NCBI GenBank assembly: GCA_965237955.1
Contig: OZ250169.1
Coordinates: 4,704,001-4,768,000, forward strand
Direction of reading: 5' to 3'
DNA from: Candidatus Marinacidobacterales bacterium
GTDB taxonomy: Bacteria > Acidobacteriota > Vicinamibacteria > Marinacidobacterales > SMYC01
DNA: 64,000 nt
The translations under genes were made by a program, and so were the position numbers. Shown piece after piece: positions 24,765 to 62,408 of the stretch. Under the pieces are notes generated by a model that saw only the letters and a program-made list of their open reading frames with translations, was not told the origin of the DNA and did no database searches. The stretch's first letter is position 1, and every line of letters starts with the position of its first letter.

Positions 24765-26354
24765 ATGTACGAGTTAGCGTTTCACGAGGACGGGAGTGAG
24801 CAAGTAGTACCCATCCGTCCCGCGGGCGTCGTGATGGGCCGCTCGCCGGATTGCGACGTCGTGATCAAGGATTTCGGCGTTTCGCGCCGTCACGCCGAAG
24901 TCGTCGTCGACGGCCAGAGCTGCCGGCTCGTCGACCTCAAGAGCAAAAACGGCACCCAGGTCAACGGGGTGCGGGTGCCAGAGGCACTTCTCGCCGACGG
25001 CGACCAGATTCTTCTCGGGAAGTTCCTGGTCTATTTTCGAAAGACACTCGACGAAAAGGTCGTCCTCGACGAAGAGAAACCGATGCTCGAGGAGGCGGGG
25101 ACCATCATCCGGAGCGTCGGCGAGCTCTCGAAGTTTTTTCTCGATGAGAAGCCACCCAAGGACGAGACCAAGCCGCGCGCTCCTTCTCCCAAGGAAGACG
25201 ACGAGCTCGCCAAGATCAATCGCGTTCTCAGAAGCTTGTCCGAGCTCGCGAAAGCTCTGATTTCGGCTCAGCCCGAGGAAGTGCCGGCCCGCGTGATGGA
25301 CGCCGTGTTCGAGCACATACCCGCGGATCGTGGTTTCCTCATGCTGTACGACGACGAGGGCAACTTGAAGCCGCGCGTGGTCCATCATCGTCACGGTGAC
25401 GATGAGAAGATCACGATCAGCAAGACGATTGCCGACCGCGTCGTTCAGGATCGCGTCGCGATTCTGACGTCGGACGCTCAAGTCGATCCGCGATTCGCCT
25501 CCGGCGACAGCATCCGCTTCCACGGCATTCGCTCCGCCATGTGCGCGCCCCTGTGGAAGGGCGACGCGGTCATCGGCATCATCCATGTAGATTCGCCAAT
25601 GCAGACGAAGACGTTCACCCCAGACGATCTCGAGCTACTGTCAGCGCTTTCGAACTACGCGGCGGTGGCAATCCAACAGGCGAGCTTGAACAAGAAGGTT
25701 CAGGAAGAAAGAGTGGCGCGCGAGCGGCTCGAGAAATACTTTTCGCCGAACGTCGCGACCCGGATTCTTTCGGAAGGTGAAAAGGAAGTTCAAGAGCTCG
25801 AAGTTTCGGTGCTGTTCGCGGATATCGTCGGCTTCACGCCGATGGCGGAGAAGATGAGCCCGCCGTCGGTGGCCAAGCTCTTGAACGAGTACTTCTCACG
25901 CATGGAAGAGCCGATCTTCGAGCACGAGGGAACGCTCGACAAGTTCATCGGCGACTGCATCATGGCGGTGTTCGGCGCTCCGTACCCTCAAGAGGATCAC
26001 GCCGTACGGGCGGTGCAAGTGGCTCTCGATATGCGCCAGCGGCTGAACGAGCTCAACACCGAGCGAGGTGGCAGTGCCCCCATCCAAATGCGGATGGGTA
26101 TCCACAGCGGCCGGGCCGTGTCCGGGCCGATGGGCTCGGAAAAACGCCGGGAGTTCACCGTGCTCGGCGACACCGTCAACATCGCTTCCCGCATCGAGTC
26201 GATGGTCGCGAAGAAGGGGCAAATCGTCATCGGTGCTCGTACCCACGATCTCGTGGAGGGCAAGTTCGAAATGAACGATCTCGGCGAGGTGACGCTGAAG
26301 GGAAAGAGCAAGACCGTTCAGGTCTACGAAGTGGTGTCGGAGAAAACCCATTGA
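24765..26354 (+). CDS. FHA-GAF-class III adenylyl cyclase
   Basis: FHA (GRS..D..I...VSRRHA..SKNGT), GAF (IRSAMCAPL), cyclase FADIVGFT, DKFIGD (K), EFTVLGDTVNIASR (T,N,R), indicating ATP specificity. Confidence 0.93.
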   Translation: MYELAFHEDGSEQVVPIRPAGVVMGRSPDCDVVIKDFGVSRRHAEVVVDGQSCRLVDLKSKNGTQVNGVRVPEALLADGDQILLGKFLVYFRKTLDEKVVLDEEKPMLEEAGTIIRSVGELSKFFLDEKPPKDETKPRAPSPKEDDELAKINRVLRSLSELAKALISAQPEEVPARVMDAVFEHIPADRGFLMLYDDEGNLKPRVVHHRHGDDEKITISKTIADRVVQDRVAILTSDAQVDPRFASGDSIRFHGIRSAMCAPLWKGDAVIGIIHVDSPMQTKTFTPDDLELLSALSNYAAVAIQQASLNKKVQEERVARERLEKYFSPNVATRILSEGEKEVQELEVSVLFADIVGFTPMAEKMSPPSVAKLLNEYFSRMEEPIFEHEGTLDKFIGDCIMAVFGAPYPQEDHAVRAVQVALDMRQRLNELNTERGGSAPIQMRMGIHSGRAVSGPMGSEKRREFTVLGDTVNIASRIESMVAKKGQIVIGARTHDLVEGKFEMNDLGEVTLKGKSKTVQVYEVVSEKTH

Positions 26355-41918: not shown

Positions 41919-42050
41919 GCAGCATCCAGCATTCAGGTCAGTTCGCGGCGTCGCCGGTAGCGGGCGTTTTGCTTGCCGGCATGCCGAGCCCGACGAGCGA
42001 TGCGCCATTTACGGGCTGGGCGTGGTGTGGGCTGAATGCTGAATGCTGAG
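41919..42050. repeat. Inverted heptamer-repeat element, same family as 1346-1494
   Basis: CAGCATCCAGCATTCAG ... CTGAATGCTGAATGCTG; internal GCCGGTA...GCTTGCCGGCA. Confidence 0.8.
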
Positions 42051-42056
42051 TGTGCG

Positions 42057-42797
42057 ATGAACCTGCGTGAGATTCTCGACTCGTTGGGGCCGCATAGCGC
42101 TGGCAGCGACGCCGCGCGGCTACTCGATCATGCGGAAGCCGACGAAGCGCACATCCTTGCCTTGTTGAGGAAACGCGAGCTGGCGACGCCCGTGATCGAG
42201 GCGGTGGCCCGCCATGATCGCTGGAACAAGCGTCACGTCGTGCGATGCGCGATCGTCAACCACATGAAGACGCCGCGCACGTTGGCGCTCCGACTGCTAT
42301 CTTTGCTGTTCTGGAGGGAGCAGCTCCGCGTCGCCGCCAACATTCGTCTCCCCATGCCGCTCCGTTTTGCCGCCGAGAGTCGACTCAAAGAACGACTGCC
42401 CGAGCTCGAGCTCGGCGAGAAAATCTCCATCGCACACTCGGCGCCGCCCGGCCTGATTCCCGCGCTCGCCGCCTGTAACCATGCGCGGGTCATTCAATCG
42501 CTCTTGCGAAACCCGCGCATGCGCGAGCAAGAGGTTCTGGCACTCGTGAAACGAGACACGACCACGGGATCCGTCTTGCGGGTAGTCGCTCAGAGCGAGC
42601 GATGGGTCGTCCGGCCTCCGGTAAGGACCGGGATCGTGTCTCATCGAAACACGCCCGTTCACGTGGCGCTGACACTCGTCTCTCGCATGACACACCGAAC
42701 GCTGCGTGCTCTCATCAAGAACAACGAGCTGCGCCCAGTCGTCGCGATCCGCGTCCGTAAGATCCTTTCTGGCGAGGAGATAGCGTCCCCTCGTTGA
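42057..42797 (+). CDS. Conserved hypothetical helical-repeat (LRV/HEAT-like) protein
   Basis: Repeats of AIVNH.KTP / LLRNPRM / IVSH.NTP; LELGEKISIA. Confidence 0.72.
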   Translation: MNLREILDSLGPHSAGSDAARLLDHAEADEAHILALLRKRELATPVIEAVARHDRWNKRHVVRCAIVNHMKTPRTLALRLLSLLFWREQLRVAANIRLPMPLRFAAESRLKERLPELELGEKISIAHSAPPGLIPALAACNHARVIQSLLRNPRMREQEVLALVKRDTTTGSVLRVVAQSERWVVRPPVRTGIVSHRNTPVHVALTLVSRMTHRTLRALIKNNELRPVVAIRVRKILSGEEIASPR

Positions 42798-42915: not shown

Positions 42916-43782
42916 ATGGCGTCGCTTAGCGAGAAGCTGAGGCGCGAACGCGAGCTTCGCGGCATCAGTTTGAAGCAGATTTCCGACGATACGAAAATCG
43001 GAGTCCGTTTTCTCGAGGCTCTCGAAGAAGACAGAATCGAGCTCATACCGGGCGAGTTCTACCGCCGCTCCTACCTCCGCGCGTACGCACGGTATCTCGG
43101 ATTGGACGAGGACCGGGCCGTCAACGCGTATGCGTTTGTCCATCAGCAGAAAGACAGAAACGACGAAAGCCACGAGGGCCAAAACCGTCCTGGGATGGTT
43201 GCGTGGCTCCCCTGGGCTGTCGCTGCTTGCGTTCTCGCTCTCATTGCCGTGTTCTTCGCCCTCTCGAGCTCAGACCCCGCGGAGTCGGCGCAGAGTGCCG
43301 CGCCGCGCGCCACCAAACCCGGGGCGCCGGTGACGCATGACGCCAACGTTGCCACCGCCGGCGCGGGATCCTTGTCCTCCGATGGAAACGCCGATGCGGC
43401 CGCGAGCTCCTCGTCGTCGGCTTCCCGGAGCTCGTCGCCAGCCACCCCAAGTAACAATGTCCCGATGCTGACGCCGTCACGCGAAGGAGCGCCGGCCGAC
43501 GGAGCACTCCGCCTCGTCGTGGCTGTCGGTGAGTCTTGCTGGCTCGAGATTGAAGCGGATGGCGAGGTGGTTACCACCGGACTCAAAGAAGAAGGGTTTC
43601 GACAAGAGTTCACCGCCGATACCGAACTGCGGCTTTGGCTCGGCAATGCCGGCGGAGTGTCGCTCTGGGTCAACGATCAGCCGCTCAAGCCGTTGGGCCG
43701 TGCGGGACAAGTTCGCAAGGATCTGTCGATCACGCCGGACAACTTCATGGACTTCGTGAGCGCGGAGTCGGGGTCGTCATGA
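42916..43782 (+). CDS. rodZ: RodZ-like HTH_25 + TM + DUF4115 protein
   Basis: LRRERELRGISL..IS..TKI..FLEALE..SYLRAYARYLGLD; C-terminal CWLEI..DG..LGNAGGV. Confidence 0.88.
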   Translation: MASLSEKLRRERELRGISLKQISDDTKIGVRFLEALEEDRIELIPGEFYRRSYLRAYARYLGLDEDRAVNAYAFVHQQKDRNDESHEGQNRPGMVAWLPWAVAACVLALIAVFFALSSSDPAESAQSAAPRATKPGAPVTHDANVATAGAGSLSSDGNADAAASSSSSASRSSSPATPSNNVPMLTPSREGAPADGALRLVVAVGESCWLEIEADGEVVTTGLKEEGFRQEFTADTELRLWLGNAGGVSLWVNDQPLKPLGRAGQVRKDLSITPDNFMDFVSAESGSS

Positions 43783-44756
43783 GCTCGCCCCTCGTGACTC
43801 TGTTCTTGCTCACGCGTGACCGCGACGACGAGGTGAGCCAGCAAGCGGAGACGAGTCTCCATGTGCTGGACGAGGCGTCGCTCGTGAGCGTGCTGAAAGA
43901 GGAGGCCACTTCGGTGGACGTGCTCGCTTTTTTCGGCACTCGGGCGAGCTCCGACGAGGTCCAACAGGCGCTCGTCCGCAACGCGTCGACCCCCGACGAG
44001 ACGGTTGCGATACTCGTCCCCAAGCTCACCGAGACCAATCTGGAGTTCGTCGTTGTCAACCAGATGCGCCTTCTGAGGCACGCTCCCGTCCTCGCCGCTC
44101 TCGACGCCAACGAGAATCTCAACTTCGACCAGGAGCGGCGCATCAAAGAGCTCAAGTTCGACTTCAAGCTCGACCGCCCCGCCGAGGAGACCGAGCCGCC
44201 GCGGCCGGAACCACAAGCCCCACAGAAACTGGATCTGGGCGCGGGACCGGCCGAAGAAGAGAAGCCCCCGCCCCGCTCGACCGAGGAAGCGGCAGAGCTC
44301 TACGGCGTATCAGATGATACGGAGGCCACCGAGGAAGAGCAGGCGGAGAAGAAGAGCTTGGTGGCCGAGCTCGTCACCATGACCGCCGCCGAGAAGATGA
44401 TGAAGGCTCTGAAAGGCGAGCGCGAGGCGCGGATGATGCTCATCCGCGATCGAAACCGTACCGTGTGGAGTGCCGTCCTCTCGAGCCCCAAGATGAACGA
44501 ATCCGACGCCGAGCAGATTGCCAAGATGCGCAACGTCGCCCCCGACGTGTTGCGAGAGATCGCGAAAAACCGTCAGTTCGTGAAGCGCTACATCGTGGCG
44601 CACGCGCTCGTCAAAAACCCGAAGACCCCGCACGAGGTGTCTTCCAAGCTCCTGGCAAGACTCAAAGATCGCGACTTGAAGCGACTGATTAAGGACCGTA
44701 ATGTCTCTGAGCAGGTCCGTCGTCTCGCGCAAAAGCGTACGCGTACAAACAAATAG
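43779..44756 (+). CDS. Conserved hypothetical helical-repeat protein
   Basis: ALVRNASTPD, MT.AEK..AL.G.REAR..LIRD.N..V..AVL.SPK, LVKNPKTP; ATGA overlap with rodZ. Confidence 0.78.
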   Translation: MSSPLVTLFLLTRDRDDEVSQQAETSLHVLDEASLVSVLKEEATSVDVLAFFGTRASSDEVQQALVRNASTPDETVAILVPKLTETNLEFVVVNQMRLLRHAPVLAALDANENLNFDQERRIKELKFDFKLDRPAEETEPPRPEPQAPQKLDLGAGPAEEEKPPPRSTEEAAELYGVSDDTEATEEEQAEKKSLVAELVTMTAAEKMMKALKGEREARMMLIRDRNRTVWSAVLSSPKMNESDAEQIAKMRNVAPDVLREIAKNRQFVKRYIVAHALVKNPKTPHEVSSKLLARLKDRDLKRLIKDRNVSEQVRRLAQKRTRTNK

Positions 44757-44770
44757 CCGAGCTAGGATCG

Positions 44771-45372
44771 ATGACCGACGACTACTACGCAATCCTCCGC
44801 GTGGCCAAGACCGCGTCCACAGGAGAGATCAAAAAAGCCTACCTGCAGTTGGCCCGGGACAACCATCCCGATCGATTCAAGGATCCGGCCGAACGCGACG
44901 AGGCCGGTCAGCGGTTCCAGCTGATCACCGAAGCGTTCAACCAACTACGTGATGAGAAAAACCGTAAGGAGTATGATAGGGATCTCTCGAAAGTGACGAA
45001 GCCCCCCGAGGAGGAGGCTCGTCTGTATTTCAAGAACGGGGAGTTGCGTGAGCAAGCTCAAGAATACGACTACGCCTTGAAGCTCTACTACGAAGCGATG
45101 CGCCTGCAGCCGGACAACGTCGACTACATTCTCGCGGGGCGGGGCGTTTGTTGGCCAAGGACAAGGCCAAGCAGCGCCAGGCGGTGGACCTCTTCAACCA
45201 GGCGATGCAGAAGGACCCGACCTCACCCGAGCCACATCTCGAGCTCGGCGCGCTCTACTCGAGAACGGGTATGCTCGTCCGCGCCAAGCGGGTCTACGAA
45301 AACGCGTTGAAGCAGTTGCCGAATCACCCCGAGCTCAAGCGCCGCTTTGCGCAAGTCAAGGAGGATAAGTAG
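44771..45372 (+). pseudogene. J-domain (DnaJ) + TPR protein, frameshifted at ~45135
   Basis: DDYYAIL..EIKKAY..HPD; TPRs continue in another frame (LLAKDKAK..) after CGGGG CGGGG; may be a sequence error. Confidence 0.82.
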
Positions 45373-45380
45373 AGCTGACA

Positions 45381-46130
45381 ATGGTCGAATCACGTTCTCT
45401 CAGCGATGTGGGCCTCAAGCGCCCCATCAACGAAGACAGCTTCTGCTCGAACGATGACGAAGGTCTGTACGTGGTTGCCGACGGGATGGGTGGTCACGCT
45501 CATGGTGAAGTCGCTTCGCGCATTGCCGTCGACACCATCGCGGACTTCATCAAGCTCACGTCGGGCGACCAGGAGATCACCTGGCCGTACGGAATCGACG
45601 AAGGTCTCACCCTCAACTCGAACCGCCTCAAGACGTCGATTCGATTCGCCAACCAGAAGCTGCTCGAGCACACCCAACAAGAGTCGGACTGCGAGGGCAT
45701 GGCGACGACGGTGGTGGCGGTGCTCGTCGAAGAGGGCGTGGCGGACATCGCGCACGTTGGTGACTCTCGCGTGTATCTGGTTCGAAGCGGTGACATTCGA
45801 TGCCTTACGAGCGATCATTCCTGGGTGAACGAGCAGGTGATGTCGGGAGTCATCGACAGCGACCAGGCGCGCACCCATCCTCTGAAAAATGTCGTAACCC
45901 GCGCGCTCGGCGGCAAGTCGGATCTCGAAGTCGACGTCCAGACGCTCGAGCTCGAGACCGACGATCGGATTTTGTTGTGTTCGGACGGACTGACGACGAT
46001 GCTCGACGACAGTCAGATACTCGACATCGTGCTCGATGGAGGAGTCGAGGCGGCCGACCGACTCGTCGAGGCTGCAAATCGAAACGGAGGGGAGGATAAT
46101 ACGACGACGATTTTGCTCCGGGTTCCGTGA
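45381..46130 (+). CDS. PP2C (Stp1/PrpC-type) Ser/Thr phosphatase
   Basis: NED, VADGMGGH, HVGDSR, DHS, TRALG, CSDGL, GGEDN. Confidence 0.96.
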   Translation: MVESRSLSDVGLKRPINEDSFCSNDDEGLYVVADGMGGHAHGEVASRIAVDTIADFIKLTSGDQEITWPYGIDEGLTLNSNRLKTSIRFANQKLLEHTQQESDCEGMATTVVAVLVEEGVADIAHVGDSRVYLVRSGDIRCLTSDHSWVNEQVMSGVIDSDQARTHPLKNVVTRALGGKSDLEVDVQTLELETDDRILLCSDGLTTMLDDSQILDIVLDGGVEAADRLVEAANRNGGEDNTTTILLRVP

Positions 46131-46230
46131 TTTTGGGTTTTGCCGGCTTGCTCGAAAGCTCCGCCCCCCCGGACGTTTCGGGCATGCTGTTGGGGTAGGG
46201 GTCTCGATCATTAAAATGTACCGGTGAGCA

Positions 46231-48442
46231 ATGACGGATAAAGATACAGACGTTCGCATCGGCAAATCCACCATCATCCGCCGTCTCGGGCGAGGGGGGA
46301 TGGGGGCCGTTTACGAGGGGCACGATCCGGCGCTCGATCGCAGCGTGGCGATCAAGACATTGACGGCCGATGTCATCGCCGACAAGGACTCGCGTAGTCG
46401 CTTCGAGCGCGAAGCCAAAGCAGCGGCGAAGCTGCAACACCCCAACATCGTCACGATCTACGAGCTCGGGAACTTCGGCGGCAACGAAAAGCCGTATATC
46501 GTGATGGAGTATCTTGAGAGTACGGACGTCTCGACGTTCATCGGCAAGAAGGGTATGCCGATTGCCGAGGCCCTCGATATCACGGTTCAGCTGTGTCGTG
46601 CTCTCGATTTCGCTCACCAAAATGGTGTCGTGCACCGTGACGTGAAGCCGGCCAACCTGCGCTATCTCGACAACGGTCAAGTCAAGATCATGGATTTCGG
46701 CATCGCTCGCATGGAGGGCGGCCACCAGATCACCAAGAGCGGGGTGATGATCGGGACCCTGCACTACATGTCACCCGAACAGATTCGAGGTCAGAAGCTC
46801 GACGGCCGCACCGATATCTTCTCCGCCGGTTGCATCCTCTATGAGCTTCTCACCGGTGAGCGACCCTTCCCCGGTGAATCCGCTACGTCGATTCTCTACA
46901 ACATCGTGAACGAGACGCCGACGCCGATCGTCGAGAAGAATACGGACCTTCCTCAGGAAATCCAGGACGTTGTCGATCGTGCGATGGCCAAGAATCCCGA
47001 TGATCGGTTCAAGGCCGCCGGAGAAATGGCTCGCGAGATCGAGAAGATCGTCAACGTTTTTCGCAAGACGCTACCTCGCACCACGCAGGTGTTGCAGCAG
47101 AGTCTGGACGAGCTCTCCGCTCTGAGCCGCGCGAAAAAGTGGCAGGAGCTCGTGCCCAAAGCGCGGGAGCTCCTCGAGCGCCATCCGCAGCTCGACGAAG
47201 CGCGGCGCCATCTCCGACGGGCCCTACGTGAGCTGCGCCACCAAGAGACCGAGCATCAGCTGACGGCAGAGGACCGGACCCGTCACCTCGAAGAGATCCA
47301 GCACGAGCTCACCGACCTCTACGGCTCCCGCTCAGCCACGATGCGCGGTGTGTCCGACGAAACCGAGCTCGCCACCGCGACGCCGACGAGGAGCTCGCTC
47401 GAACCGCTCCCGGCCGGTGAAGCCAAGGAAGGAAGCGGAGAGCCCGAGTCGACAGCAGCAGTGCGCGCTCTCGCCGCACCGATCTGGGCGCTGGTTATCG
47501 TGGTTTTGCTGGGTCTCGCCGGAGTGTTGTACTGGCTGTTCCTGCGCGAGCCACCCGGACCACAACCGGTGTCGCACACGATCCAAGTTCGCTCAGAGCC
47601 GCCGGGTGCCGCGGTCTACCTGAACGGAGCCGCCACCGGACTCGTGACCACTAGGACGACGACGGCGTTGAGCTGCTCCTTTCGGGCATGACCGAGGAGT
47701 CGCACGCGATCGAAGTCCGGCTCGAAGGTTTCGAGTCGGCCTCGAACGACGTCACGTTGATGATCGACCCGCCGGCGCCGCTCGAGTTCGTGTTGACATC
47801 GACGATGCGGCTTTTCGAGCTAGGAACCGCACCCCAAGGAGCGACTGTTACGCTCGACGGGGAAACCATCGACGGCGTCACGCCGATGACCCTGGAGCTT
47901 TCGGACGATGACCACGAGATTCGGCTTTCACGAACGGACTATCGCTCGGCCACGGTCGAGATCGCCCGAGGCCAGCCGCGTCCCTCGGGGCCGGTCCAGC
48001 TCACACCGCTGGGGCGGCCAGGGACGTTTCAAGTGCAAGCGAGCTATCCCGTCGCGATCCTCCCGTCGCGATCCTCCGAGGGGAACGAGAGATGGCCGCC
48101 GCGTCGACGAGCCCGAGCGTGCAGCTTCGGCCGGGGAGTTATCAGCTTCGGCTGTTGGCGCCCGACAAGTTCTTGAACCGCTCGGTCCAAGTGACGATCC
48201 GTGAGGCCAACGTGACCACGCACCAGGCGCCACCGCTCGGGCGCGTCAACGTCCGCGCCAACCCCGGCAACTGTACCCTGACTATCGACGGCATGCCGGC
48301 CGGTGCGCCGCCGTTCATGAACCGTGAGGTGGTGACGGGGGAACACGAGTTCGTGTTCACCTGGCTGGGCGACGTTACCGATGTTCACACCGTCACGGTG
48401 GGCGCGGCGCAGCCGGCTTATGTGATCGGGCAAAGACCATGA
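46231..48442 (+). pseudogene. Hanks-type Ser/Thr kinase, TM, extracellular PEGA domains; two frameshifts (~47652, 48047-48074)
   Basis: GRGGMG, VAIK, HRDVKPAN, DFG, YMSPE; TM; PEGA SEPPGA.VYLNG, TAPQGA.V.LDG; ORF pieces 46231/47688/48092 are collinear. Confidence 0.88.
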
Positions 48443-48505: not shown

Positions 48506-50016
48506 GTGAGTGATCGGTTGAGACTTCGGGTGGTTTTGCTTGGCTTCTTCTTGTGATTGCGGCAACTGCTTTTGCTCAGGGGCCGCCGACGGATTTGGCG
48601 CGTCAGCATCTCGAGAGCGGCACTCAGTTTTATGAGCAGGGTCGTTACAAGCAGGCGTTGAACGACTTCCAGATTATCGTGACCTCGATGGCCGATACCG
48701 AATACGCGGACGACGCCCTGCTCCTCATCGGACGCTACTACCTCGATATCGAAGAGGATTTCGACGAGGCCAAGGAGAGCTTTGACGCGGCGCTGCGCGG
48801 CTACCCGACGGGCAATGCGGCGCCGGGCGCGTACTACTACCTGGGCGAGGTGGTGTTTCGCTCGGACCGGACCGGTGGCGCGATCGACGATGCGCTCGCG
48901 AACTATCAGCGTGTGTTTCTCTATGCGGGCAATCCTTGGATTCCGGCCGCGCTGTACTCGACCGGCCGTGCGCTCGAGCGCCAGGGCAGGTTTCAGGACG
49001 CCGTGGACGCCTACTTTCAAGTCATCGTGGACCACTCCCGATCGGATTGGTCGGCCGGTGCACAGCTCGGGGTCGGGCGAAGCTCGGTGAGGCAAGGCGA
49101 GCCGCTGGGGGCCATGGCTCAGTTCCAGGAAGTGAGAAACAACTATCCGGATACGGCTGAGGCCGACGTGGCGCTCGACTGGCTGACGCTCTTGTACCGC
49201 TTCTACGGCGCACCGATGCTGGGAAAGTCGGTCTCCTTCCGGAAGGACTCGAGCTTCAAGCCAGCGCTCCGGGACAAATTCAAAGACGTGAGAGCACTGC
49301 GGGTGTCCGACAGCGGAATCCACGTCCTCGAGCGAGGGCGCAAGCGCGTGATCACCTTCGACCGAGCCGGCCAGCTGGCGGGAACGATCGCCGCCGCCAA
49401 CCCGTACGGGTTATCCGTCGACCCGCGTGGCCAGCTCGTCATCGCCAGCGAGAAGGGTCTCATCCTCGATGGAGCACCCAGGAGCTACACCGTGCCGGCG
49501 AAGGACGGACCCGAGCCCCTCGAGAAGATCCGCTGGGCGGCTCGCGATCGATTGGGCGAAGTCTACGTCTATGACGAGAAGCAGAAAAAGATCTTGAGGT
49601 TCGATGAAACCGGGCAACTGCTCGGCCCGTTCCCGGACGCAACACCGCGCGAGGTGTTGGCCATCGAAGTCGACCAGCTCGGCAATCTCGTGCTGCTGCT
49701 GAAGAAGGATCGCGACGTGATCGTGTACTCTCCCGGGGGCCGGGCGCTCGCGAGGATCCCGACGAAGCGCGGTGGCCCGGTGACGCTCAAGAAAGCGACC
49801 GACATCGCCCTCGATCCGGCAGGCTATCTTTACATTCTCGACCAAGACCGAGCGCAAATCGCGGTGTTCGACGCCGCTTACCAACACCTCACGACGTTGA
49901 CGGCTCAGAGCCTCGGCTCTGGTGCTCTCCAAAAGCCCGTTACCATGGACGTCGACGCTTCCGGAGCTCTCTATGTTTATGATGACAAGGCGAAAGCGAT
50001 TATCCGGCTTCATTGA
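48506..50016 (+). CDS. Exported BamD/YfiO-like TPR + NHL beta-propeller protein; signal peptide frameshifted at T-run 48534-48537
   Basis: GAGGAGG RBS then GTG 48506 (MSDRLRLRVV) joins FAWLLLVIAATAFA only if one base is added; TPRs (YADDALL, AYYYLGE), NHL (DIALDPAGYLYILD). Confidence 0.8.
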
Positions 50017-52258
50017 GCCCGTTCAGGTTGTCCATGTTGTTCTCGGCTGCCTGCTAGCAGCGACTGCATTCGCGCCCGGACAAGCTCAAGCTCGAGCTCA
50101 GCAGGCGCCGGGCTTTGGGCAGGCCGAGCAGCTTGAACCAGCGAGGGGCGCGCTGACGCTCGAGGAGCAGGAGCTCCTGTTCCGGCTCTCGCAGCAGTTC
50201 CAGGAAGCGCTCGAGCTCTTCGAGGATCCGCAGCGGCAGTCACAGTCCATCTACTTTTTCACCCAGATCGTCGATGCGGTGAACGATGAGCGGCGTACCC
50301 AGGAGGAAGTGGCCTCGGAGATCATCGCTCTCCAGCAGCGTTCGCTCGAGCATCGAGCGCGGTCTTTTTTTACGGCAGGACAGCTCCAGGGTGCCACCGA
50401 CGATTTCCGCCAGCTCCTGCTCGACAACCCTCGCTACGGACTCGATACCGAGGCGCTGTCGCCACGGCTCGTCGACTTCTTCGAAGATCTGAAAAAGCAG
50501 CTCATCGGCTATGTCGCCGTAACCACCGAGCCCGCAGGCGCGCGGGTGATGGTGAACGGTAACTTCATCGGGATCACCAACTTCTTTCCGATCGAGGTGC
50601 ACACCGGGATCGCACGGATCGAGGTCACGCTCGAAGGACACGAAACATACGCCGATGACGAAATGAGGATTGGTCCGGGAGAGATCACGACGCTGGATCT
50701 CGCGTTGACGCGCACCAGCGCCCGACTCCCGATCATCACCGATCCGTCCGGTGTCGAGATCGTCGTCGACGGGGAAGTCGTCGGCGCGACATCCGGAACG
50801 TTACCTCCGGATCTTCGAAGCTTCATGCCCGCGAACATGGATCCGAACCGGCTTTCGGCTCCGTACGAGCTCGGGGCGCTTCCCCTGGGACAGCATCAGA
50901 TCGAGCTGCGCTTGGATTGTTACCGGTCAGTCTCGTTTCCGTTCAACGCGGACGAGCCACGGGATTACACGGCGCAAATCGTCAAGCTCGAGGACTCGAT
51001 CGGAAGCTTGACCATCACCTCCAATCCGTCGGAGGCGAGCGTGTACATCGACGGAGAGCTCCGGGGCACGACACCACTCGATCTGAAGCGGGTGTGCTCG
51101 GGTCCGCACCATCTCGAGGTGAAACACGTCACCGGGAAGTACGTCGAAGACATCGACGTCGGTCCGGACGAATCCCTCTCGTTCGAGTGTCCGATTCGAC
51201 CTACGCTCGCCATCGTCGGCATCGTCGCCGATGAAGAGGTTTCTGCGCGCGATGTGGCCGATATCCGGCAAAAGCTCCGGGAGGAGCTCAAAAACCTCGA
51301 GCGAATGAACCTCGTGTTCGCCGAAGACGAGCTGGTAAGGACCCAAATGGGAGCGGCGGGGTTGACTGCTTTCGTCCCGGCGCGATCGGACGCTGATGTC
51401 AGCACCGATCAGGTCCGCGAGCTCTCGGAAAAACTCGGAAAAGCACTCGAAGCCGAAGCGCTTCTCGTCGCCTACGTCCCGTCACAGCGGTTGGTCAAAG
51501 ATATCGTGCTGCACTTTATCGCCGTGGGCTCGACCGTTCCCGACGTATACCCGCTCAACTACCTCGACCCGCAAGCGTTCCCAGCGTTTCTGGACGAGCT
51601 GTCGACGCCGACGCCGCTTCACGGAAGCTGGGCCGGATTTCTCGCCGTCGACACCCGTATCAACGACGGGCCCATCGTCCTCGCGGTCGGTGCCGGCGGA
51701 CCGGCCGAGGCGTCAGGTCTACAACCAGGTGACGTCGTCGTCGCCGCAGACGGGAATCCCGTGACCCGAGCGCTCGATCTCCTGGAGGCGGTCCGCGCGG
51801 CCGAGCCAGGCGCGAGCGTGGCCCTCAACATTACCCGAGGCGGCTCGAGCTCCTCGCTCTCGCTCAATGTCGGCACCACACCGCTCGAAGTCCCGTTAGG
51901 CGATCCGAGCTTTCTTTACAACAAAGCGATCGTCGACTTACGCCATCGGATGGTGACCGAGCCCGAGAACGAGAACCTTGCTCGTTTGAACGTGGGTTTG
52001 TGTCACATGGAGCTGGGTGACTACGAGACCGCTCTCAAGGAGTATTTGCCTCGGGTGGTGCTGCCGGAGACGACCGGGATCTCTCAAGGGACGGTTTTGT
52101 ACTACACGGCGCTCGCCTATTTGAAACTCGGCGAGAGGGCCGACGCGGCACGCCTGTTCCAACGAGCACTCGGCTTTCCGGACGCGACCCTCCACTCGAA
52201 CGACGGCCCGAGAGTCGCACCACTGGCCCAACGCCGCCTCCGCGAGCTCGGCCAGTAG
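49982..52258 (+). CDS. Exported protein with 3 PEGA domains, PDZ and TPRs
   Basis: Signal-like N-terminus; TEPAGARV.VNG, TDPSGVEI.VDG, SNPSEASVYIDG..GTTP; PDZ GPAEASGLQPGDVV..DG; C-terminal TPR; start uncertain. Confidence 0.85.
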   Translation: MTRRKRLSGFIEPVQVVHVVLGCLLAATAFAPGQAQARAQQAPGFGQAEQLEPARGALTLEEQELLFRLSQQFQEALELFEDPQRQSQSIYFFTQIVDAVNDERRTQEEVASEIIALQQRSLEHRARSFFTAGQLQGATDDFRQLLLDNPRYGLDTEALSPRLVDFFEDLKKQLIGYVAVTTEPAGARVMVNGNFIGITNFFPIEVHTGIARIEVTLEGHETYADDEMRIGPGEITTLDLALTRTSARLPIITDPSGVEIVVDGEVVGATSGTLPPDLRSFMPANMDPNRLSAPYELGALPLGQHQIELRLDCYRSVSFPFNADEPRDYTAQIVKLEDSIGSLTITSNPSEASVYIDGELRGTTPLDLKRVCSGPHHLEVKHVTGKYVEDIDVGPDESLSFECPIRPTLAIVGIVADEEVSARDVADIRQKLREELKNLERMNLVFAEDELVRTQMGAAGLTAFVPARSDADVSTDQVRELSEKLGKALEAEALLVAYVPSQRLVKDIVLHFIAVGSTVPDVYPLNYLDPQAFPAFLDELSTPTPLHGSWAGFLAVDTRINDGPIVLAVGAGGPAEASGLQPGDVVVAADGNPVTRALDLLEAVRAAEPGASVALNITRGGSSSSLSLNVGTTPLEVPLGDPSFLYNKAIVDLRHRMVTEPENENLARLNVGLCHMELGDYETALKEYLPRVVLPETTGISQGTVLYYTALAYLKLGERADAARLFQRALGFPDATLHSNDGPRVAPLAQRRLRELGQ

Positions 52259-52375: not shown

Positions 52376-53863
52376 GTGAACAAGCTCATCATTCGACACG
52401 GCGAGCGCGTGACCGAGCATCCGATCGATGACCATCCGCTCGTCGTCGGCCGCGACCCGCAGTGCGATCTTTTTTTCGCCGACAAGAAGCTCTCGCGGCG
52501 CCACGCGCGCTTCGAGCGAGACGGTGACGGCATCCGGCTCGTGGACTTGGGAAGTCGCAATGGCTGCTGGGTCAACGAAGAGAGGGTCGAGAAGAAACTT
52601 CTGACACCGTCCGACGCCGTTCGTCTCGGCAGCCTATCGGTCACTCTGGAAGCAGAGCCGGAACCGGCCGAGCGCGACGACCAGGAGTCGACGGTATACC
52701 TTTCGGCGGAGCCCCCGTCGGACGATAGCGGGACCATGGTGTTGTCCAGCAATGATTTGCCGGATGCCGAGCCACCGCGGGACGCGGGCACGGTCATCCT
52801 CCCCCCGCCCGACACGCCCGACGCGAACGCCCCGGCGCAGGACTCGACGACGCGCAGGGTAGAAGTGGGCCACGAAGACCCGACGTTGAGAAAGCCCGAC
52901 ACCGTCGCTCGAGAAGCCCGAGAAGGAAGCTCCGAGCAAACGATCATGCTTCAAGGGAACGCACCTCGAGCCGCAACCGATACCGGGACCGTCATCTTTC
53001 GAGGCAAGACCGCTCCCGCCATGGACGATGCGACTCGACTCGCGCCCGCCGGCGGTGCCGCCGAAACGAAGATGCAGGCCCCCGGCGCGCCTCGGTTGCC
53101 CGAAGCGTCGCCCGATACATCGGTGCAGCCGGGCGAGCAATCCTGGGACTTCGAGCCCCCCGTCCGGGCGGCACGTCCACTTCAGGCGAGCACTCTCCGG
53201 TTCGTGGGCTTGGTCGCGGCGATCGCGGCGCTTGCGTTCGTCGTTCTGGCCATGCCGTTGCTGCGCACGCTCGGGAGCGCCCTTGCGGCGGAGTCTTCGC
53301 TTCGAGGCCGGGCCCTCGTCGATCTGCTGGCGGCAACCAACGAAGAGGCGTTGCGTGAGAATCGTCCGGAGACGCTCTCCACCGAACGCGTCGCCGGTGA
53401 GCCAGGCGTGGTCGGGGCGTACATTCTCGATCCGATGGGGCGGGTCCTCGCCCCCGCGGCGATGCCCGGTGAGTCGTCGGGACCACTCCTTTCGAATCTC
53501 GGCTTCGACGTCGAAGCGAAGGACATCCGCGCGTTCCGCGAAAGCCGAGCCGGGGACGACACCACCGTGTACGCGTTACCGGTTCGCGCCCAGGGGCGAC
53601 GGCTCGGAGTTGCCGTGTTGCACTACCGCGTCGGCGCCGCGGTTTCCAGGTGGACCGTGGTGATGCTCGTGCTCGGATCGCTTCTCCTTCTGATGGGGGT
53701 GGCTGCGGCGGTGTTGGTGGCGAGGCGATGGACGCTCCTGCCGGTCCAGGAGCTCAAAGACGATGTCGAAGCTCTCCGGCGCGGGTTCGTCGAAAGCCTC
53801 GCCGAGGACCGGCCGTACTCGGATCTTGCTACCATCGCACGCAACTTCAACGAGCTCGTGTAA
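52376..53863 (+). CDS. FHA - Thr-motif array - TM - periplasmic domain - TM - HAMP membrane protein
   Basis: FHA VGRD..CD...LSRRHA..DLGSRNG; two TMs; HAMP P..EL...DL..IA.NFN; frame continues past TAA to 53962. Confidence 0.82.
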   Translation: MNKLIIRHGERVTEHPIDDHPLVVGRDPQCDLFFADKKLSRRHARFERDGDGIRLVDLGSRNGCWVNEERVEKKLLTPSDAVRLGSLSVTLEAEPEPAERDDQESTVYLSAEPPSDDSGTMVLSSNDLPDAEPPRDAGTVILPPPDTPDANAPAQDSTTRRVEVGHEDPTLRKPDTVAREAREGSSEQTIMLQGNAPRAATDTGTVIFRGKTAPAMDDATRLAPAGGAAETKMQAPGAPRLPEASPDTSVQPGEQSWDFEPPVRAARPLQASTLRFVGLVAAIAALAFVVLAMPLLRTLGSALAAESSLRGRALVDLLAATNEEALRENRPETLSTERVAGEPGVVGAYILDPMGRVLAPAAMPGESSGPLLSNLGFDVEAKDIRAFRESRAGDDTTVYALPVRAQGRRLGVAVLHYRVGAAVSRWTVVMLVLGSLLLLMGVAAAVLVARRWTLLPVQELKDDVEALRRGFVESLAEDRPYSDLATIARNFNELV

Positions 53864-54164
53864 CAGCGCGACCCTGACACCTCAGGAAGTGGCTCGGCCA
53901 CGTTCGAGCCAATGCTCGATCCCACGCTGGTGCCGGAAGAACACGAGCAAGCCGATCGCTAACCTCGGAGCTCGGGACGTACACGGCGGCGAGGATTTGG
54001 GGCGTGTCCCTGCAGAGAATTGGACCGAGGCGCGAAGCGCCGAGCACCACGAGCTGATGGCTGATGGCTCGCGGCGGTCAATGGGTTGCGGCTCCGCCGC
54101 GCCGTGATCCTGTGGTAGTCTTGTCTTCGGTGTTTTTCTATTCCCCGCGAGTGCTATTCCAGCC

Positions 54165-54506
54165 ATGAAGATACGAACCCATCCTGAATACCCCTGTTTG
54201 CTGGTTCCCAACAAGAACGGGAAACAAAAACGGTTTCCCATCAAGCTGCGTGAGGCGAGCGTCGGGCGTGATCCGTCGAACGACATCTGTATACCCGACC
54301 ATTTGGTGAGCAAGTTTCACGCGAAGCTTCTCGTCTCCAATCAGAGCGTCACCGTCGTGGATCTCGAGAGCGCGAACAAGACCCGGGTCAACGGTCAAAT
54401 CGTCACCCACTCGGCCGTGGGCTTCGGAGACGAGCTGCAGTTCGCGCGGGTCAAGTGCCAGCTCGTGCTCCACGCCAGCGAGTACCGCCCGAGTAAGATC
54501 GGATGA
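54165..54506 (+). CDS. Stand-alone FHA domain protein
   Basis: VGRDPSNDI.I.D..VSKFHA..DLESAN.T.VNG. Confidence 0.88.
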   Translation: MKIRTHPEYPCLLVPNKNGKQKRFPIKLREASVGRDPSNDICIPDHLVSKFHAKLLVSNQSVTVVDLESANKTRVNGQIVTHSAVGFGDELQFARVKCQLVLHASEYRPSKIG

Positions 54507-58829: not shown

Positions 58830-60215
58830 TTGCCCCAGCGCACTGAATTTCTGCTCGGCCAAATGTCCCATTGGGTCGGTGGACTCTCTCAGACCGGTCG
58901 GACGGAGTTCCTGTTCGAGCTCGAGATGTGGCTTCGAAGCTTCGAGCGCTATTTCTTAATCAAGAACCAACCGCTGTCCGAAGAGTCAACGCGTACCCTC
59001 GCCATCCGCAGCTTCTATGAGGAGATCGGACTCGTCGCCCATGCCATCGACCGGGTGACGAAGCTTTGTGCTCTGCTATCGAGCGAAGATCAGGTCTCTC
59101 AGGAGCGCTTCGAGAAGTACGTCGAGAACTTCCTCAAAACCGACGACATCGCAGACCCCTACGTGGCGCGTTTGCTCCGGCAAAGTAGCCCCCAGGCGGG
59201 GCTGACGCTCCTTCGAGAGAGCTTCGAGGACCTCATCCTCCTCCTGAAGGAGCTGTCGAAACTCTCGCGCATACCGTACGGCACGTTCCAGAGCATCGGA
59301 CGCCTCATCTATCGCGAAATCCGGCGGAACGACTACTTGAGCTTGCTCATGGACAAGAAGTTCAAGCCCGCGTACGACCGTATCTCCGCGGAGCCTATCG
59401 CCGAGGTGATTCAGCGCATCGACGACCGCGCGCGACGACGCCTCATCGCCAACATTTTTCTCCAGTTCTTCCGCCTGCTGCACTACCTCGAGTATGCGGA
59501 CCCCAGGCGACGTCACTTGGACGAGCTCCGTACGAGTGTCTTGATATTCTCGCTGATCGCGTCCGAGACCCGGGCGCTCGTCGACTATATTCAGCAGGAA
59601 CAAGAGCGTCTCGGAAGTGACTCCGCCTTTCCGGCCACTTTCGGAAGCTTCGTCTACTGCGTGCCGCTCGAGCTTCGCAAGGTGATCAACACCGAGCTCA
59701 CCGAGCTGACGTCGTTCAAGCAGGCCGACACCATCTACATGCGGATTGAGAACTCTCACGGCATCCTTCGAGACTGCTTCCAACAGAGCGTGATTCAGTT
59801 GGCGCAAGGCTTCGATCCCGAAATCGAAGGCAAGCGGATCTTCCCGCAGTACCAGACGCATCTGGAACAATCCCAGCTCTTGAAGCGCGATCTCCTTGCG
59901 CTCATCGGCGCTGTGCACAAGTTCGCGGTCGAGCCGAGCGAGGACCGCGCCGGCTCGATGAAGCGGCTGATCTCACATTTTTATGATCGATCCCTGCGGT
60001 TTCTGATGTACCGGGATTGGTCGAGCTTCGAATCGTTTGCTGCGGAGCTTCTGAAGTGCGACAACATTCCCGGTCTCATCCAAATCGCGCACCGCTTCGA
60101 GACCTACCTCAAGACCCTTTTGCGCGAAGTGAGCAAGCGCGGTGTTCTGCATGCGAGCCGCGACGGCGAGACCGACGAAGCGGCTGGTGACGAATCCCGC
60201 GTGGGTTTGTCGTAG
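58830..60215 (+). CDS. Hypothetical all-helical cytoplasmic protein (461 aa)
   Basis: Long ORF with host-like codon usage; TGCTATCCT extended -10 at ~58770; no recognised domain. Confidence 0.75.
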   Translation: MPQRTEFLLGQMSHWVGGLSQTGRTEFLFELEMWLRSFERYFLIKNQPLSEESTRTLAIRSFYEEIGLVAHAIDRVTKLCALLSSEDQVSQERFEKYVENFLKTDDIADPYVARLLRQSSPQAGLTLLRESFEDLILLLKELSKLSRIPYGTFQSIGRLIYREIRRNDYLSLLMDKKFKPAYDRISAEPIAEVIQRIDDRARRRLIANIFLQFFRLLHYLEYADPRRRHLDELRTSVLIFSLIASETRALVDYIQQEQERLGSDSAFPATFGSFVYCVPLELRKVINTELTELTSFKQADTIYMRIENSHGILRDCFQQSVIQLAQGFDPEIEGKRIFPQYQTHLEQSQLLKRDLLALIGAVHKFAVEPSEDRAGSMKRLISHFYDRSLRFLMYRDWSSFESFAAELLKCDNIPGLIQIAHRFETYLKTLLREVSKRGVLHASRDGETDEAAGDESRVGLS

Positions 60216-60252: not shown

Positions 60253-61359
60253 CTAGTTGCCCGGCTTGGCAGGAGGGGTCGACTTTTTCTCGATCGTGTC
60301 TTGCTCCGAGATGCTCGTCTTCAGCGCGTCGACGATCTCAGGGTCGAATTGCGTTCCTGCGTGCGCTTCCAGCTCGCGAATCGCCATGTCGTACGGCAGC
60401 GGAGATTTATACGAGTTCTTGGCGGTGATGACGTCGAAGGCTTCACACGCTCCGATAATCCGGGCGCCCTTGGGAATGGCCGCGCCCTCCAGTTTTTAGG
60501 GGTATCCGCGCCCGTCCCAACGTTCGTGGTGGTGCAGCACGATTCCGGCCAGGTCTTTCCAAAAGATGATGTCTTTGATCATCTCGTAGCCCAAGAGCGG
60601 GTGGAGCTCGATACGCTCCCGCGTCCACTCCTCGGTGGCGTCGAGCTTCAAGAGCCCGATGTCGTGCAGCAGACCCGCGAAGTAGAGGTTTCTCTGCTCG
60701 TCATCCGACAGGCCGAGCCCCTGCGCCACCAGCCGCGCGTAGCGGGCCACTCGGCGCGCGTGTCCCGACTTGATGGGAACGTGGGTGTCCATCGCGCCGA
60801 TTAGGATCTCGCTCACGTGAGTGAAGTAGTTGTTTTGCGCGTCGGTCAGCCGAACGTGGTCGATGGAGATGGCGGCCTGGTCGGCGAGAGAGAAAAGCAG
60901 TGATTGATCCTCTGCGTCGAACTCGCCGTTTTTCTTTTTGTTCAGCAGCTCGATCACCCCGATGACTTTGTCTTCGAACGTCAGGGGAACACAGAGAATG
61001 GATCGGGTTTGGAAGCCGGTCTCCCGGTCGAAACGACGTTCGAAACGAGGGTCGGACTCGACGTCGTTGACGATCGCAGGCTCGCCGGTATCGGCGGTCC
61101 ACCCCGCGATGTCCTGTCCAGGCTCGACTGCCATCGGTTTGACCGTGCTGGCCGCGCGTCCGGACGCCGTGTGGAAACGGAGCTTCCCCTCGTCGTCGTA
61201 GAGCAGAATCGAGCCCGCCTCGGCGCCCACCGTTTCCGCGGCGGTTTCGACGATCGTCGATAGCAACACATCGAGATGGATGATGCTTCGATAGGCCTTG
61301 GTGACTTCCAGGACCGCTTTCAGCTTGTCGATATATTCAGATGGATCGCTCAGCTTCAT
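60253..61359 (-). pseudogene. GAF + HD-GYP protein with in-frame TAA at 60496-60498
   Basis: GAF (TRSILCVPL), HDIG, HHERWDGRGYP* then in frame KLEGAAIP.GARII..AFD..GTQFDPEIVDA to TAG 60253. Confidence 0.85.
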
Positions 61360-61486
61360 CTTTCGCAGAACCACTGAGACGGAATGAGGAAACGACGCTG
61401 TCGCAATAAGTTGGGGGTAAGGCTACCACGGCTTCGGGCGAGACGTCAAACTCGTAGGTAAATTATGCGGCAGTTCACACCAAATG

Positions 61487-61564: not shown

Positions 61565-62408
61565 ATGTCAGGCAAAGAAAGCCCGTTTGCCAAGTTCCTT
61601 ACCAAGTTCAAGAAGGGCGACTTCATCTTCCGACAAGGCCAGGAAGGCGATGAGATGTACATCGTCCAATCCGGACAGGTCGCGATCCGCAAAACGATCG
61701 GCAACAAGCGGACCACCGTCAACGTTCTCGAAAAAGGCGATTTTTTCGGCGAGATGTCCGTTCTCGAGCGTTTGCCGCGCACGGCCGACGCCGAGGTCGA
61801 GGAGGATGCCGGCGTCATTACCATCAACAGCGCGACCTTCGGGGAGATGATCCGCTCCAACCCCGAAATCGCGGTGCGCATGCTCCGCAAGTACTCGATG
61901 CGCATGCGCGAGTACTCGGAGCAGCTCGAAAAGCTGATGACCGAGCAAAACGTCGTCGAGAAGGGGGATCTCCCCGATGTCGACGAGCCCTCTAAGGGTC
62001 CGGAAGGTACCGTGCCTTCGACGGCGACCGCTCGCGCTTATTTCGTCGCCAAAGAGAGTGGCAAGATCTACCCGGTCTACAAAGACGAAGTTCTCATCGG
62101 CAGGTCCCGAGCAGAGTGGCAAGATCTACCCGGTCTACAAAGACGAAGTTCTCATCGGCAGGTACGATTCGGTCACGGGACACCCCGAGGTCGACTTGAC
62201 CGACGAGGACGACAACCGCAACGTCAGCCGGCGCCACGCCCGTCTGTTGTACAAGGACGAAACGCACTACATCGCCGAAGAGATTGGAACGATGAACGGC
62301 ACTTACATCAACGGCAACCGCATCCCTACCGGTGTCCTGACGCCGGTCAAAGACGGTGATGAAATTACTCTCTGCCGCGTACCGGTTATCTTCAAGATTG
62401 CAGAGTGA
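61565..62408 (+). pseudogene. cNMP-binding + FHA protein split by a 58-bp duplication/insertion
   Basis: GDFFGEMS..PRTA cNMP domain; FHA IGR.D..VSRRHA..TMNGT in shifted frame; 62055-62105 duplicated at 62113-62163. Confidence 0.87.

Follow-up and report, generated by a model that had tools for sequence, protein, structure and literature searches.

The DNA examined here, which we call the window, is a stretch of 64,000 nucleotides from a Candidatus Marinacidobacterales bacterium (GenBank assembly GCA_965237955.1, contig OZ250169.1, positions 4,704,001 to 4,768,000 of the forward strand). At 52376..53863 of the window, on the + strand like every other feature whose coordinates are written below with two dots, lies a gene whose product combines an N-terminal FHA domain, a disordered linker with an array of threonine motifs, a transmembrane (TM) helix, an extracytoplasmic Cache domain, a second TM helix and a HAMP-like unit. 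The protein has 495 amino acids (aa) in this strain and would have 528 if read to 53962. We placed the start at the GTG at 52376 because the N-termini of the orthologues read M/V-x-K-L-I-I. An earlier reading, made from the letters alone (the sequence-only reading), had described a receptor-like membrane protein with its own FHA domain, linker, TM helices and HAMP, and this architecture holds, the HAMP being HAMP-like and sub-threshold in profile searches; the peptides that it quoted all lie within the frame-2 open reading frame (ORF) ending with the TAA at 53861-53863. The protein is a member of an undescribed family with the order FHA–TM–Cache–TM–HAMP(–PAS), and a literature search made mostly without subscription papers found no description of this architecture or of the threonine array. 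Precomputed matches assign part of many homologs to PF26769, a newer Pfam family.

The FHA domain (52376..52654, residues 1-93; PF00498, E 2.8e-17) was the only Pfam domain found in the window protein, and a Yop-YscD_cpl match spans the FHA region only. Residues G25, R26, S40, R41, H43, S60, R61, N62 and G63 are intact, none of the 78 sequences varies in the phosphate-binding residues, and the protein has the fold with G-R, S-x-x-H and N-G that marks FHA domains binding phosphothreonine (pThr). Comparison with PDB structures placed the fold nearest to the FHA domains of GarA, OdhI and DgcB. An AlphaFold2 model built on a 61-row alignment showed a confident FHA domain (1-93), disorder over residues 100-266 (predicted local distance difference test, pLDDT, below 50) and, further on, a long helix for TM1, a small extracytoplasmic domain of alpha/beta type, TM2 and a pair of HAMP-like helices. 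The acidic linker with the array occupies 52655..53185 (residues 94-270), its disorder being indicated by composition and by pLDDT<50 over 100-241 and 243-266. Hydropathy and the model place TM1 at 53201..53266 (residues ~276-297) and TM2 at 53648..53725 (residues ~425-450), and between them lies a single, PAS-like Cache domain (53267..53635) that contains residues invariant across homologs and that Foldseek identified as WalK-like; for the membrane half the best matches were WalK structures 9a5d (E 2.5e-6) and 7dud (E 1.5e-4), among 4 matches at E<=0.001. A search of the ESM Atlas gave nothing beyond Cache/HAMP look-alikes scoring below 0.9. The two-helix unit at 53726..53860 is seen as helices in the models, and PF00672 (HAMP) was found only below the Pfam cut-off, in 3 of 10 homologs (P0020, P0028 and P0088). 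HAMP domains dimerise, and this unit likely does so too. RNA contigs of runs X15 and X16 overlap parts of the gene, although such contigs do not show expression.

A protein search gave 103 matches, 88 at the level of the family and 15 in the FHA domain only. Eleven of the 88 were removed before linkers were counted because they were frameshifted or partial (P0005, 10, 12, 13, 14, 69, 70, 72, 74, 78 and 88), so that the linker set comprised 78 sequences, the query and 77 homologs. The strict motif was defined as T-[VIMLF]-[VIMLFY]-[LFIV]; this pattern was chosen after viewing the sequences, and the excess far exceeds any bias from such a choice. The query linker holds five motifs of Thr followed by three hydrophobic residues where 0.04 were expected (none of 20,000 shuffles reached five), and the 78 linkers hold 351 strict motifs, against 7.7+-2.7 in shuffles (maximum 17 in 1000), with 1 to 12 motifs per linker and a median of 5. 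The equivalent motif with serine occurred once in the 78 linkers, despite serine being more frequent than threonine (1376 versus 1184). The excess persists in the 21 linkers below 60% identity (94 threonine motifs versus 1.8 in shuffles, and no serine motif). Around the threonine, positions -4 to -2 are acidic and -1 is G/S/R/A, while +1 is Val in 84% and +3 is Leu in 81% or Phe in 19%. When contexts were selected by the upstream acid and the downstream hydrophobic triplet, position 0 was Thr in 335 of 347 and Ser once, with no case of Val or Ile; this speaks against strand propensity alone.

The conserved threonine motifs on the inner, disordered arm number five to eight. Three class-1 motifs with Leu at +3 lie at 52679..52801 (Thr codons 52691, 52733 and 52790 for T106, T120 and T139), and a second group at 52871..53044 contains T170 (D-x-T-L-R/K class, 52883), T189 (class 1, 52940), the double site T203/T205 (52982 and 52988) and T220 (A-T-R-L class, 53033). 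Among the 77 homologs a threonine was retained in 75 at T106, 73 at T120, 75 at T139, 63 at T170, 77 at T189, 68 at T203, 53 at T205 and 57 at T220, and rarely at T158/159 (2 and 6), T176 (3), T231 (5) and T248 (6). Since the repeats align interchangeably, these counts indicate presence and not strict positional orthology. About eleven motifs had been listed by the sequence-only reading, which asked for their conservation in orthologue alignments: seven are conserved, in 53-77 of the 77, five of them with a hydrophobic residue at +3, whereas the other four are kept in only 2-6. The first motif lies 13 residues past the FHA domain and the median spacing between motifs is 24 residues, which leaves room for one FHA domain per site. 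Tandem expansion to 6-12 copies was seen in 5 of the 78 linkers and in one further orthologue (L038); copies of the Ca. Marinacidobacterales type, to which the window copy belongs, hold up to 12 motifs. The L038 orthologue (L038:8763-9746, genome G033) lacks the Cache domain, carries a near-perfect, recent 32-residue tandem repeat with sites every 16 residues, and is frameshifted downstream of the array in that assembly.

Such an array is rare in the genome. With a matrix trained on the family, at least three sites were found in one of the 6,681 predicted proteins, the window protein itself, and proteins with a single hit (195 versus 144-162 in shuffles) were near the shuffle level. With the strict matrix, enrichment in the kinases and other FHA proteins of the genome was weak or absent: hits came from 5 of 65 kinases and from 2 of 13 FHA proteins, one of which is the window protein. 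No linker array was found among 130 other FHA ORFs from the fetched loci; 20 of them had at least two hits, which by our own reading of the motifs look like strands of folded domains. Similar motifs had been reported in a cyclase linker and in the kinase of the window, and sites do exist there, single or paired; they do not form arrays, and the cyclase motif EEAGTIIR has Arg at +3. Single or paired acidic threonine motifs also lie next to the FHA domain in other FHA proteins of the genome (G000:C1 7091733-7092800, 6743133-6744842, 4933006-4933497 and 6193283-6193867), among them one of FHA-GAF-SpoIIE type and two with a zinc ribbon, and these are candidates for self-docking like that of DgcB.

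The claim that no kinase, cyclase or chemoreceptor output follows the HAMP is borne out by the window protein and the homologs examined. No catalytic Pfam family was found in the 88 close homologs or in 64 scanned distant ones, and GGDEF, HisKA and cyclase signatures were absent from all of 150 distant homologs; an EAL-like pattern occurred in 17 of these 150, yet Pfam found no EAL domain. The tail past the HAMP is 0-37 residues long in 73 of the 77 homologs and 145-187 residues long, and PAS-like, in 4. Longer forms of 868-2475 aa were searched for and none was found, which is weak evidence. Assignment to the sensor histidine kinases, cyclases or chemoreceptors was therefore rejected, there being no cytoplasmic output domain after the HAMP.

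The reading frame ends at a TAA (53861..53863) that is specific to this strain, since P0001, P0005, P0363 and P0365 have Gln at this codon; proteins 97-99% identical carry the Gln and end at the same place as the read-through product, the intact alleles being 529-532 aa long. When the codon was checked in sequencing runs, base 53861 was T in run X1 (depth 25) and C, giving CAA for Gln, in X2, X4 and X6. A plain assembly error is unsupported, as the X1 contig also has T, although X1 may be the source sample of the assembly. Read-through adds 33 residues, and the 32 codons lost (53864..53962) include one extra threonine motif (Thr codon 53924). This LDPTLVP motif, noticed beyond the TAA by the sequence-only reading, is real: D[PA]T followed by two hydrophobic residues is present in 20 of the 77 homolog tails. 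The ectodomain (PEGA region) of the window kinase has two frameshifts, near 47652 and 48047, shared by X1 and absent from X2. With these kinase frameshifts and without the tail, the phospho-system is probably impaired in this strain. Other lesions were also seen: a DnaJ-TPR gene is frameshifted near 45140 (within the lesion group at 44771-48442), and a GAF/HD-GYP gene (60280-61374) has an internal TGA at about 60496. A 58-base duplication at 62054-62112 breaks the cyclic nucleotide (cNMP)-FHA gene at 61565 and is skipped by the X1 and X2 contigs, so it is likely an assembly artefact. The short intergenic element at 53982-54110 stands out in each of the four runs by its very high contig depth and numerous loose ends, and is probably a multicopy REP-like repeat.

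Upstream of the gene are a PP2C phosphatase (45381..46130; domain and synteny), a candidate eraser, and a Hanks-type Ser/Thr kinase with TM and PEGA regions (46231..48442; catalytic motifs intact, Ile at DFG+1), a candidate writer. Envelope proteins with TPR/NHL (YbgF/CpoB-like TPR) and PEGA/PDZ domains follow in the same conserved gene run (48553..52258), and downstream is a stand-alone FHA protein (54165..54506), a trimmed relative of Tad-cluster FHA-TM-TPR proteins and a candidate reader. Among 25 family loci, 22 share a downstream LdcA-Mpl run and 15 have a Hanks kinase within 8 kb upstream; two are Tad loci, one is too short and three have unrelated genes upstream. The envelope neighbours (RodZ, YbgF-like TPR, LdcA and Mpl) suggest envelope control, although the association may be positional only. 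Titled relatives belong to Ca. Marinacidobacterales, within the Vicinamibacteria of the Acidobacteriota. By taxonomic family, the FHA-array gene was present in 14 of 14 genomes of f1, 6 of 6 of f2 (some of these hits were weak and later confirmed) and 0 of 27 of f3, and the kinase orthologue in 11 of 11, 5 of 5 and 0 of 24, respectively. In six f2 orthologues a bare TM hairpin replaces TM-Cache-TM while FHA, array and HAMP are kept, and these six are also without the small FHA gene next to it; the L035/L056 orthologue keeps the Cache and lacks the HAMP. As the array is kept through these losses, the conserved core is FHA, array and membrane anchor. Three further synteny-conserved proteins (43779-44756, 42036-42797 and 58830-60215) gave no match in Pfam or NCBIfam.

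The sequence-only reading had missed a relationship to Tad clusters. A profile search with the membrane half gave 1,603 representatives at E<=0.001, and among the best 150 of these, 106 have an FHA domain and 92 a C-terminal PAS-like domain, which is found in 4 of the 88 close homologs and is absent from the window protein even on read-through. Ten Vicinamibacteria regions were fetched: six contain the family (five whole Tad clusters and one remnant), and the other four proved to be histidine kinases and were set aside. The Tad order in Vicinamibacteria is TadZA-TadB-TadC-(DUF192)-FHA-family gene-FHA/TPR-FHA2/TPR-PilB-like ATPase-(PP2C or kinase), and at L138 the Tad cluster runs straight into kinase-TPR/NHL-PEGA/PDZ. 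Homologs labelled Bdellovibrionales align over 455 columns (hhalign A1 versus A4, 99.9%, E 1.8e-31), and 7 of 10 metagenome loci examined read TadC-small ORF-family-FHA, the small ORF being DUF192 in the 5 tested. Strict sites number 1-4 in same-order Tad copies and 0-2 in other Vicinamibacteria Tad copies. In a quick, midpoint-rooted tree the window copy falls in a 15-row clade (SH-aLRT 100) within a 31-row clade (99) that includes same-order Tad copies, and the deeper rows of known context are all Tad-linked; monophyly of the kinase-locus copies had a support of 42. The small FHA at 54165 is 46-56% identical to FHA domains of same-order Tad FHA-TPR proteins, versus 35-39% to the small FHA found at this locus in another family, f4. 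We infer that a gene pair was copied from a Tad cluster into the kinase locus, losing the PAS and the TM-TPR. The position after tadC(-DUF192) and before FHA-TPR/FHA2-TPR is occupied by the paralogues at L022, L023 and L030, whereas the window copy follows the kinase operon and precedes the trimmed FHA gene. CpaB was not found in the window genome (0 of 1; 12 of 41 in a search of relatives), so the job of the window copy is Tad-independent.

The same order is found in Bdellovibrio bacteriovorus, where Bd0470 is TadC, Bd0471 DUF192, Bd0472 FHA, Bd0473 FHA and Bd0474 FHA-FHA-TM-TPR, bd0470–bd0474 all being listed as essential for predation in attack phase (PMC12034629). A bd0474 mutant still attached to prey and did not kill (PMC6561027). 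Because tadC–DUF192–family–FHA-TPR–FHA2-TPR matches bd0470–bd0474, Bd0472 is, by gene order, the likely counterpart of our family. In the literature found, Bd0472 appears only as a list entry in one paper, and a 2026 preprint, in the part seen, leaves the FHA/TPR/PAS genes near tadC unexplained and treats the connection of Tad to signalling as an open question (10.64898/2026.07.08.737194). Bd0075, a partner of Bd0474, has an acidic E-T-V-I motif just past the N-terminal domain in each of the six sequences of which enough is shown (PMC12034629); this motif resembles a class seen in the window protein, and the kinase Bd3148 is in the same list of essential genes (PMC12034629). In Vicinamibacteria, the Tad clusters at L136-L140, L145, L022, L023, L030 and L033 carry three genes for FHA membrane proteins together with a second, PilB-like ATPase, in the order of the Bdellovibrio tadC operon, and a machinery for contact-dependent predation or adhesion is possible there. 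Elsewhere the family was not found: 0 of 5 genomes in the phylum of an Anaeromyxobacteraceae locus had it, and a wider search of 251 genomes of that phylum gave 26 weak hits; the 6 of these that were fetched turned out to be cyclases, GGDEF proteins or histidine kinases. Scanning metagenomes with P0147 gave nothing, and there were no hits in the 12 Kil supplement files searched, of 23.

The explanation that we favour, and hold to be moderately probable from the combined analyses, is that this enzyme-less inner-membrane protein acts as a multivalent FHA scaffold switched by phosphorylation, in the manner of Rv1747 or of the MST2 linker. All steps of this mechanism, phosphorylation included, we infer. 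The kinase at 46231, switched on through its extracytoplasmic PEGA region, would phosphorylate several linker threonines and the PP2C would reverse this. Each HAMP-linked dimer would offer two FHA domains and at least ten pThr sites, and FHA domains, the protein's own and the small FHA of 54165 where present, would bind these sites in trans. With one FHA and at least five sites per chain, a median spacing of 24 residues and dimerisation through the HAMP, phosphorylation would make a self-crosslinking membrane platform, and the protein might condense into a membrane patch once enough sites were filled. The patch would recruit partners bearing FHA domains or pThr. For Tad-cluster copies these could be the FHA-TPR and FHA2-TPR proteins, helping to trigger pilus assembly, and for the window copy the envelope proteins of the kinase operon; this downstream target is the weakest link of the mechanism. 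The Cache domain would only modulate.

A multivalent pThr/FHA scaffold had also been proposed by the sequence-only reading, and it draws inferential support from the near-exclusive threonine at position 0, the invariant FHA pocket, the tandem duplications up to 12 sites and the DFG+1 Ile. The last residue is present in every operon kinase listed and predicts a preference for Thr, by a rule that comes from eukaryotic kinases (PMC3898841). The strict Leu or Phe at +3 fits a reader, +3 being the key specificity position of FHA domains (PMC6733907). Recruitment of the small FHA at 54165, part of the same proposal, cannot be obligatory because the six orthologues without that gene keep the array; a complex prediction of 54165 with linker residues 99-144, unphosphorylated, gave no answer (score 0.00) and was not used either way. 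Recruitment of the cyclase at 24765 or of 61565 finds nothing beyond proximity to tie either to the array.

Several observations weigh against the phospho-scaffold. The co-absence of kinase and FHA-array gene in f3 may be one loss event. In f4 the kinase operon is present without the FHA-array gene in the five loci reaching that far, so the kinase does not need that gene, and at L046, L053 and L065 no kinase lies within 8 kb upstream. DFG+1 Ile occurs in 13 of the 65 kinases of the genome and thus does not single out the operon kinase. Among Bdellovibrionales-type homologs, 112 of 117 have no strict motif in residues 96-190 and 5 have one; the array is therefore not needed for the ancestral job of the family. 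Close strains carry independent lesions in the FHA gene, which suggests relaxed selection in the species: X2 and X6 have lost one base at 53156, as has P0012, and a minor X4 contig lacks 310 bases, as do P0005 and P0014.

Perhaps the array serves an intramolecular switch as in GarA, OdhI and DgcB, in which one pThr motif folds into the protein's own FHA, masking or redirecting it, and the extra copies give redundancy or graded sensitivity without any network. This is consistent with the nearness of the FHA fold to those proteins, with the short distance from the FHA to the first motif, with the single motifs that flank many FHA domains of the genome and with the persistence of the array in orthologues without the small FHA gene. 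However, an FHA domain binds a single site, whereas the linkers hold a median of five strict sites and up to 12, with fresh tandem duplications, and the DgcB paper itself favours binding of the tail between molecules (PMC6733907). We regard this switch as unlikely, though it survives better than the other alternatives.

Slightly less likely is the ligand-sensing receptor of the sequence-only reading, in which a ligand of the Cache would change the TM/HAMP region and so alter the access of kinase or FHA reader to the linker. In its favour, the wide family retains a WalK-like module of Cache-TM-HAMP(-PAS), and there are the invariant Cache residues. This role is weakened by the six orthologues that have only a TM hairpin and a full array, from which ligand sensing is not the core function, as well as by the L035/L056 orthologue without HAMP; moreover, the HAMP of close copies mostly leads to no more than a short tail, and the array stands before TM1 and not after the HAMP.

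The protein could also regulate the kinase, its FHA docking on juxtamembrane pThr of the kinase as FhaA does on PknB, with the array a decoy substrate of high capacity that buffers or times the kinase output. PknB–FhaA docking at the juxtamembrane segment and seven juxtamembrane threonines in StkP have been described (PMC12077195), and all six operon kinases listed keep acidic Thr sites just before the TM. Such sites, also seen in f4 and at window 47300-47400, are candidate FHA docking sites like those of PknB. A sink needs kinase specificity only, whereas the strict Leu/Phe at +3 points to a reader, and this role is compatible with the scaffold and does not exclude it; as a full explanation we consider it improbable. 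Still more improbable is that the motifs are beta-strand docking sites for another partner, independent of phosphorylation. T-V-V-L is strand-prone, similar strings occur in folded domains and the DgcB tail was bound unphosphorylated in a crystal (PMC6733907), whereas the absence of Val and Ile at position 0, the single Ser in 347 contexts and the position of the motifs, with an intact FHA alongside and a kinase/phosphatase pair nearby, speak against it. A truncated sensor enzyme, its catalytic domain lost at the TAA, was tested and rejected as next to impossible: the TAA is premature and there are other lesions at the locus of this strain, but read-through stops after 33 residues where the intact alleles also end, and the C-terminal enzyme for which the sequence-only reading had allowed in orthologues is carried by none of the 88 close or 150 distant homologs examined.

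On a longer view, which we offer tentatively and think rather less probable than the scaffold itself, the family would be an output-free bacterial counterpart of the eukaryotic multisite FHA platforms, in which evolution, by gain or loss of threonine repeats (1-12), tunes the valency and so sets the threshold of a kinase-triggered membrane condensate, and which was spun off from a Tad-arming FHA module of predatory bacteria. Bd0472-0474 and the acidobacterial copies might then be one phospho-switch for contact-triggered pilus assembly, and the Tad-bearing Vicinamibacteria maybe contact predators. For the FHA genes next to Bdellovibrio tadC, which are essential for predation and uncharacterised, the family also supplies a domain architecture and a motif that can be tested, and the same Tad-FHA gene run is present in uncultured Acidobacteriota.

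Compared with known systems, the membrane half has its best structural and profile match in the WalK-type input module (TM-Cache-TM-HAMP-PAS), from which the window protein differs in lacking HisKA/HATPase and in having an N-terminal FHA instead. NCBIfam whole-protein cut-offs were not reached for GltG (44.5 of 650 bits), TagH, the Fha protein of type VI secretion systems (T6SS) (35.9 of 120), or FhaB/FipA (52 of 125), and no SctD model gave a hit; the GltG of PMC11761067 is a different protein from our family. A relay by FHA proteins from contact-triggered phosphorylation to assembly of a nanomachine has been proposed for the Tad-like Kil system of Myxococcus and for T6SS PpkA-Fha (PMC8460266), whereas our family was not found in the 251 genomes searched from the phylum of the Anaeromyxobacteraceae locus. 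With Bd0472 (WP_011163055.1; operon bd0470-bd0475; PMC12034629, PMC6561027) distant homologs share the TadC/DUF192–FHA-TPR–FHA-FHA-TPR order; the homology over FHA and TM-Cache-TM-HAMP was found against Bdellovibrionales-type homologs and not against Bd0472 itself, and those homologs keep a PAS-like C-terminus and lack the array, whereas the window copy is without a PAS and comes from a genome in which no CpaB was found.

GarA, OdhI and DgcB (PMC6733907) share with the window protein an own FHA and a nearby Thr with acidic residues upstream and hydrophobic ones at +2/+3. They have one N-terminal site, are soluble and regulate enzymes, whereas the sites here are multiple and C-terminal of the FHA, and the window protein scored 55 bits against an equivalog cut-off of 200. 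In the MST2 linker, seven pThr-Met sites are known, three of which bind the SLMAP FHA at 0.16-1.1 uM (PMC5663475). The acidic linker, the redundant FHA binding and the near-identical local context (acidic-G-T-M) are alike; that system differs in being eukaryotic, in having the array on the kinase itself and in an FHA reader that recruits a phosphatase, so this is a resemblance with no common descent shown. Rv1747 of M. tuberculosis is likewise a membrane protein with FHA domains and pThr sites in a disordered linker, written by a Hanks kinase and erased by a phosphatase, and its FHA-linker-FHA region clusters upon phosphorylation (PMC11326607, PMC8339232). Its FHA domains number two, as do its main sites, and its output is an ABC transporter, whereas the window protein has one FHA, belongs with copies of 5-12 sites, lacks any output and is not homologous to Rv1747 beyond the FHA. 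Platforms of multisite pThr/FHA type are common in eukaryotes; in bacteria the precedent found is Rv1747, with its two main sites on a transporter. The protein described here is a real, undescribed variant of this known multivalent pThr/FHA principle, and its family, with 1-12 sites, no output domain and a likely writer, eraser and reader adjacent, provides a natural valency series for threshold or condensate behaviour.

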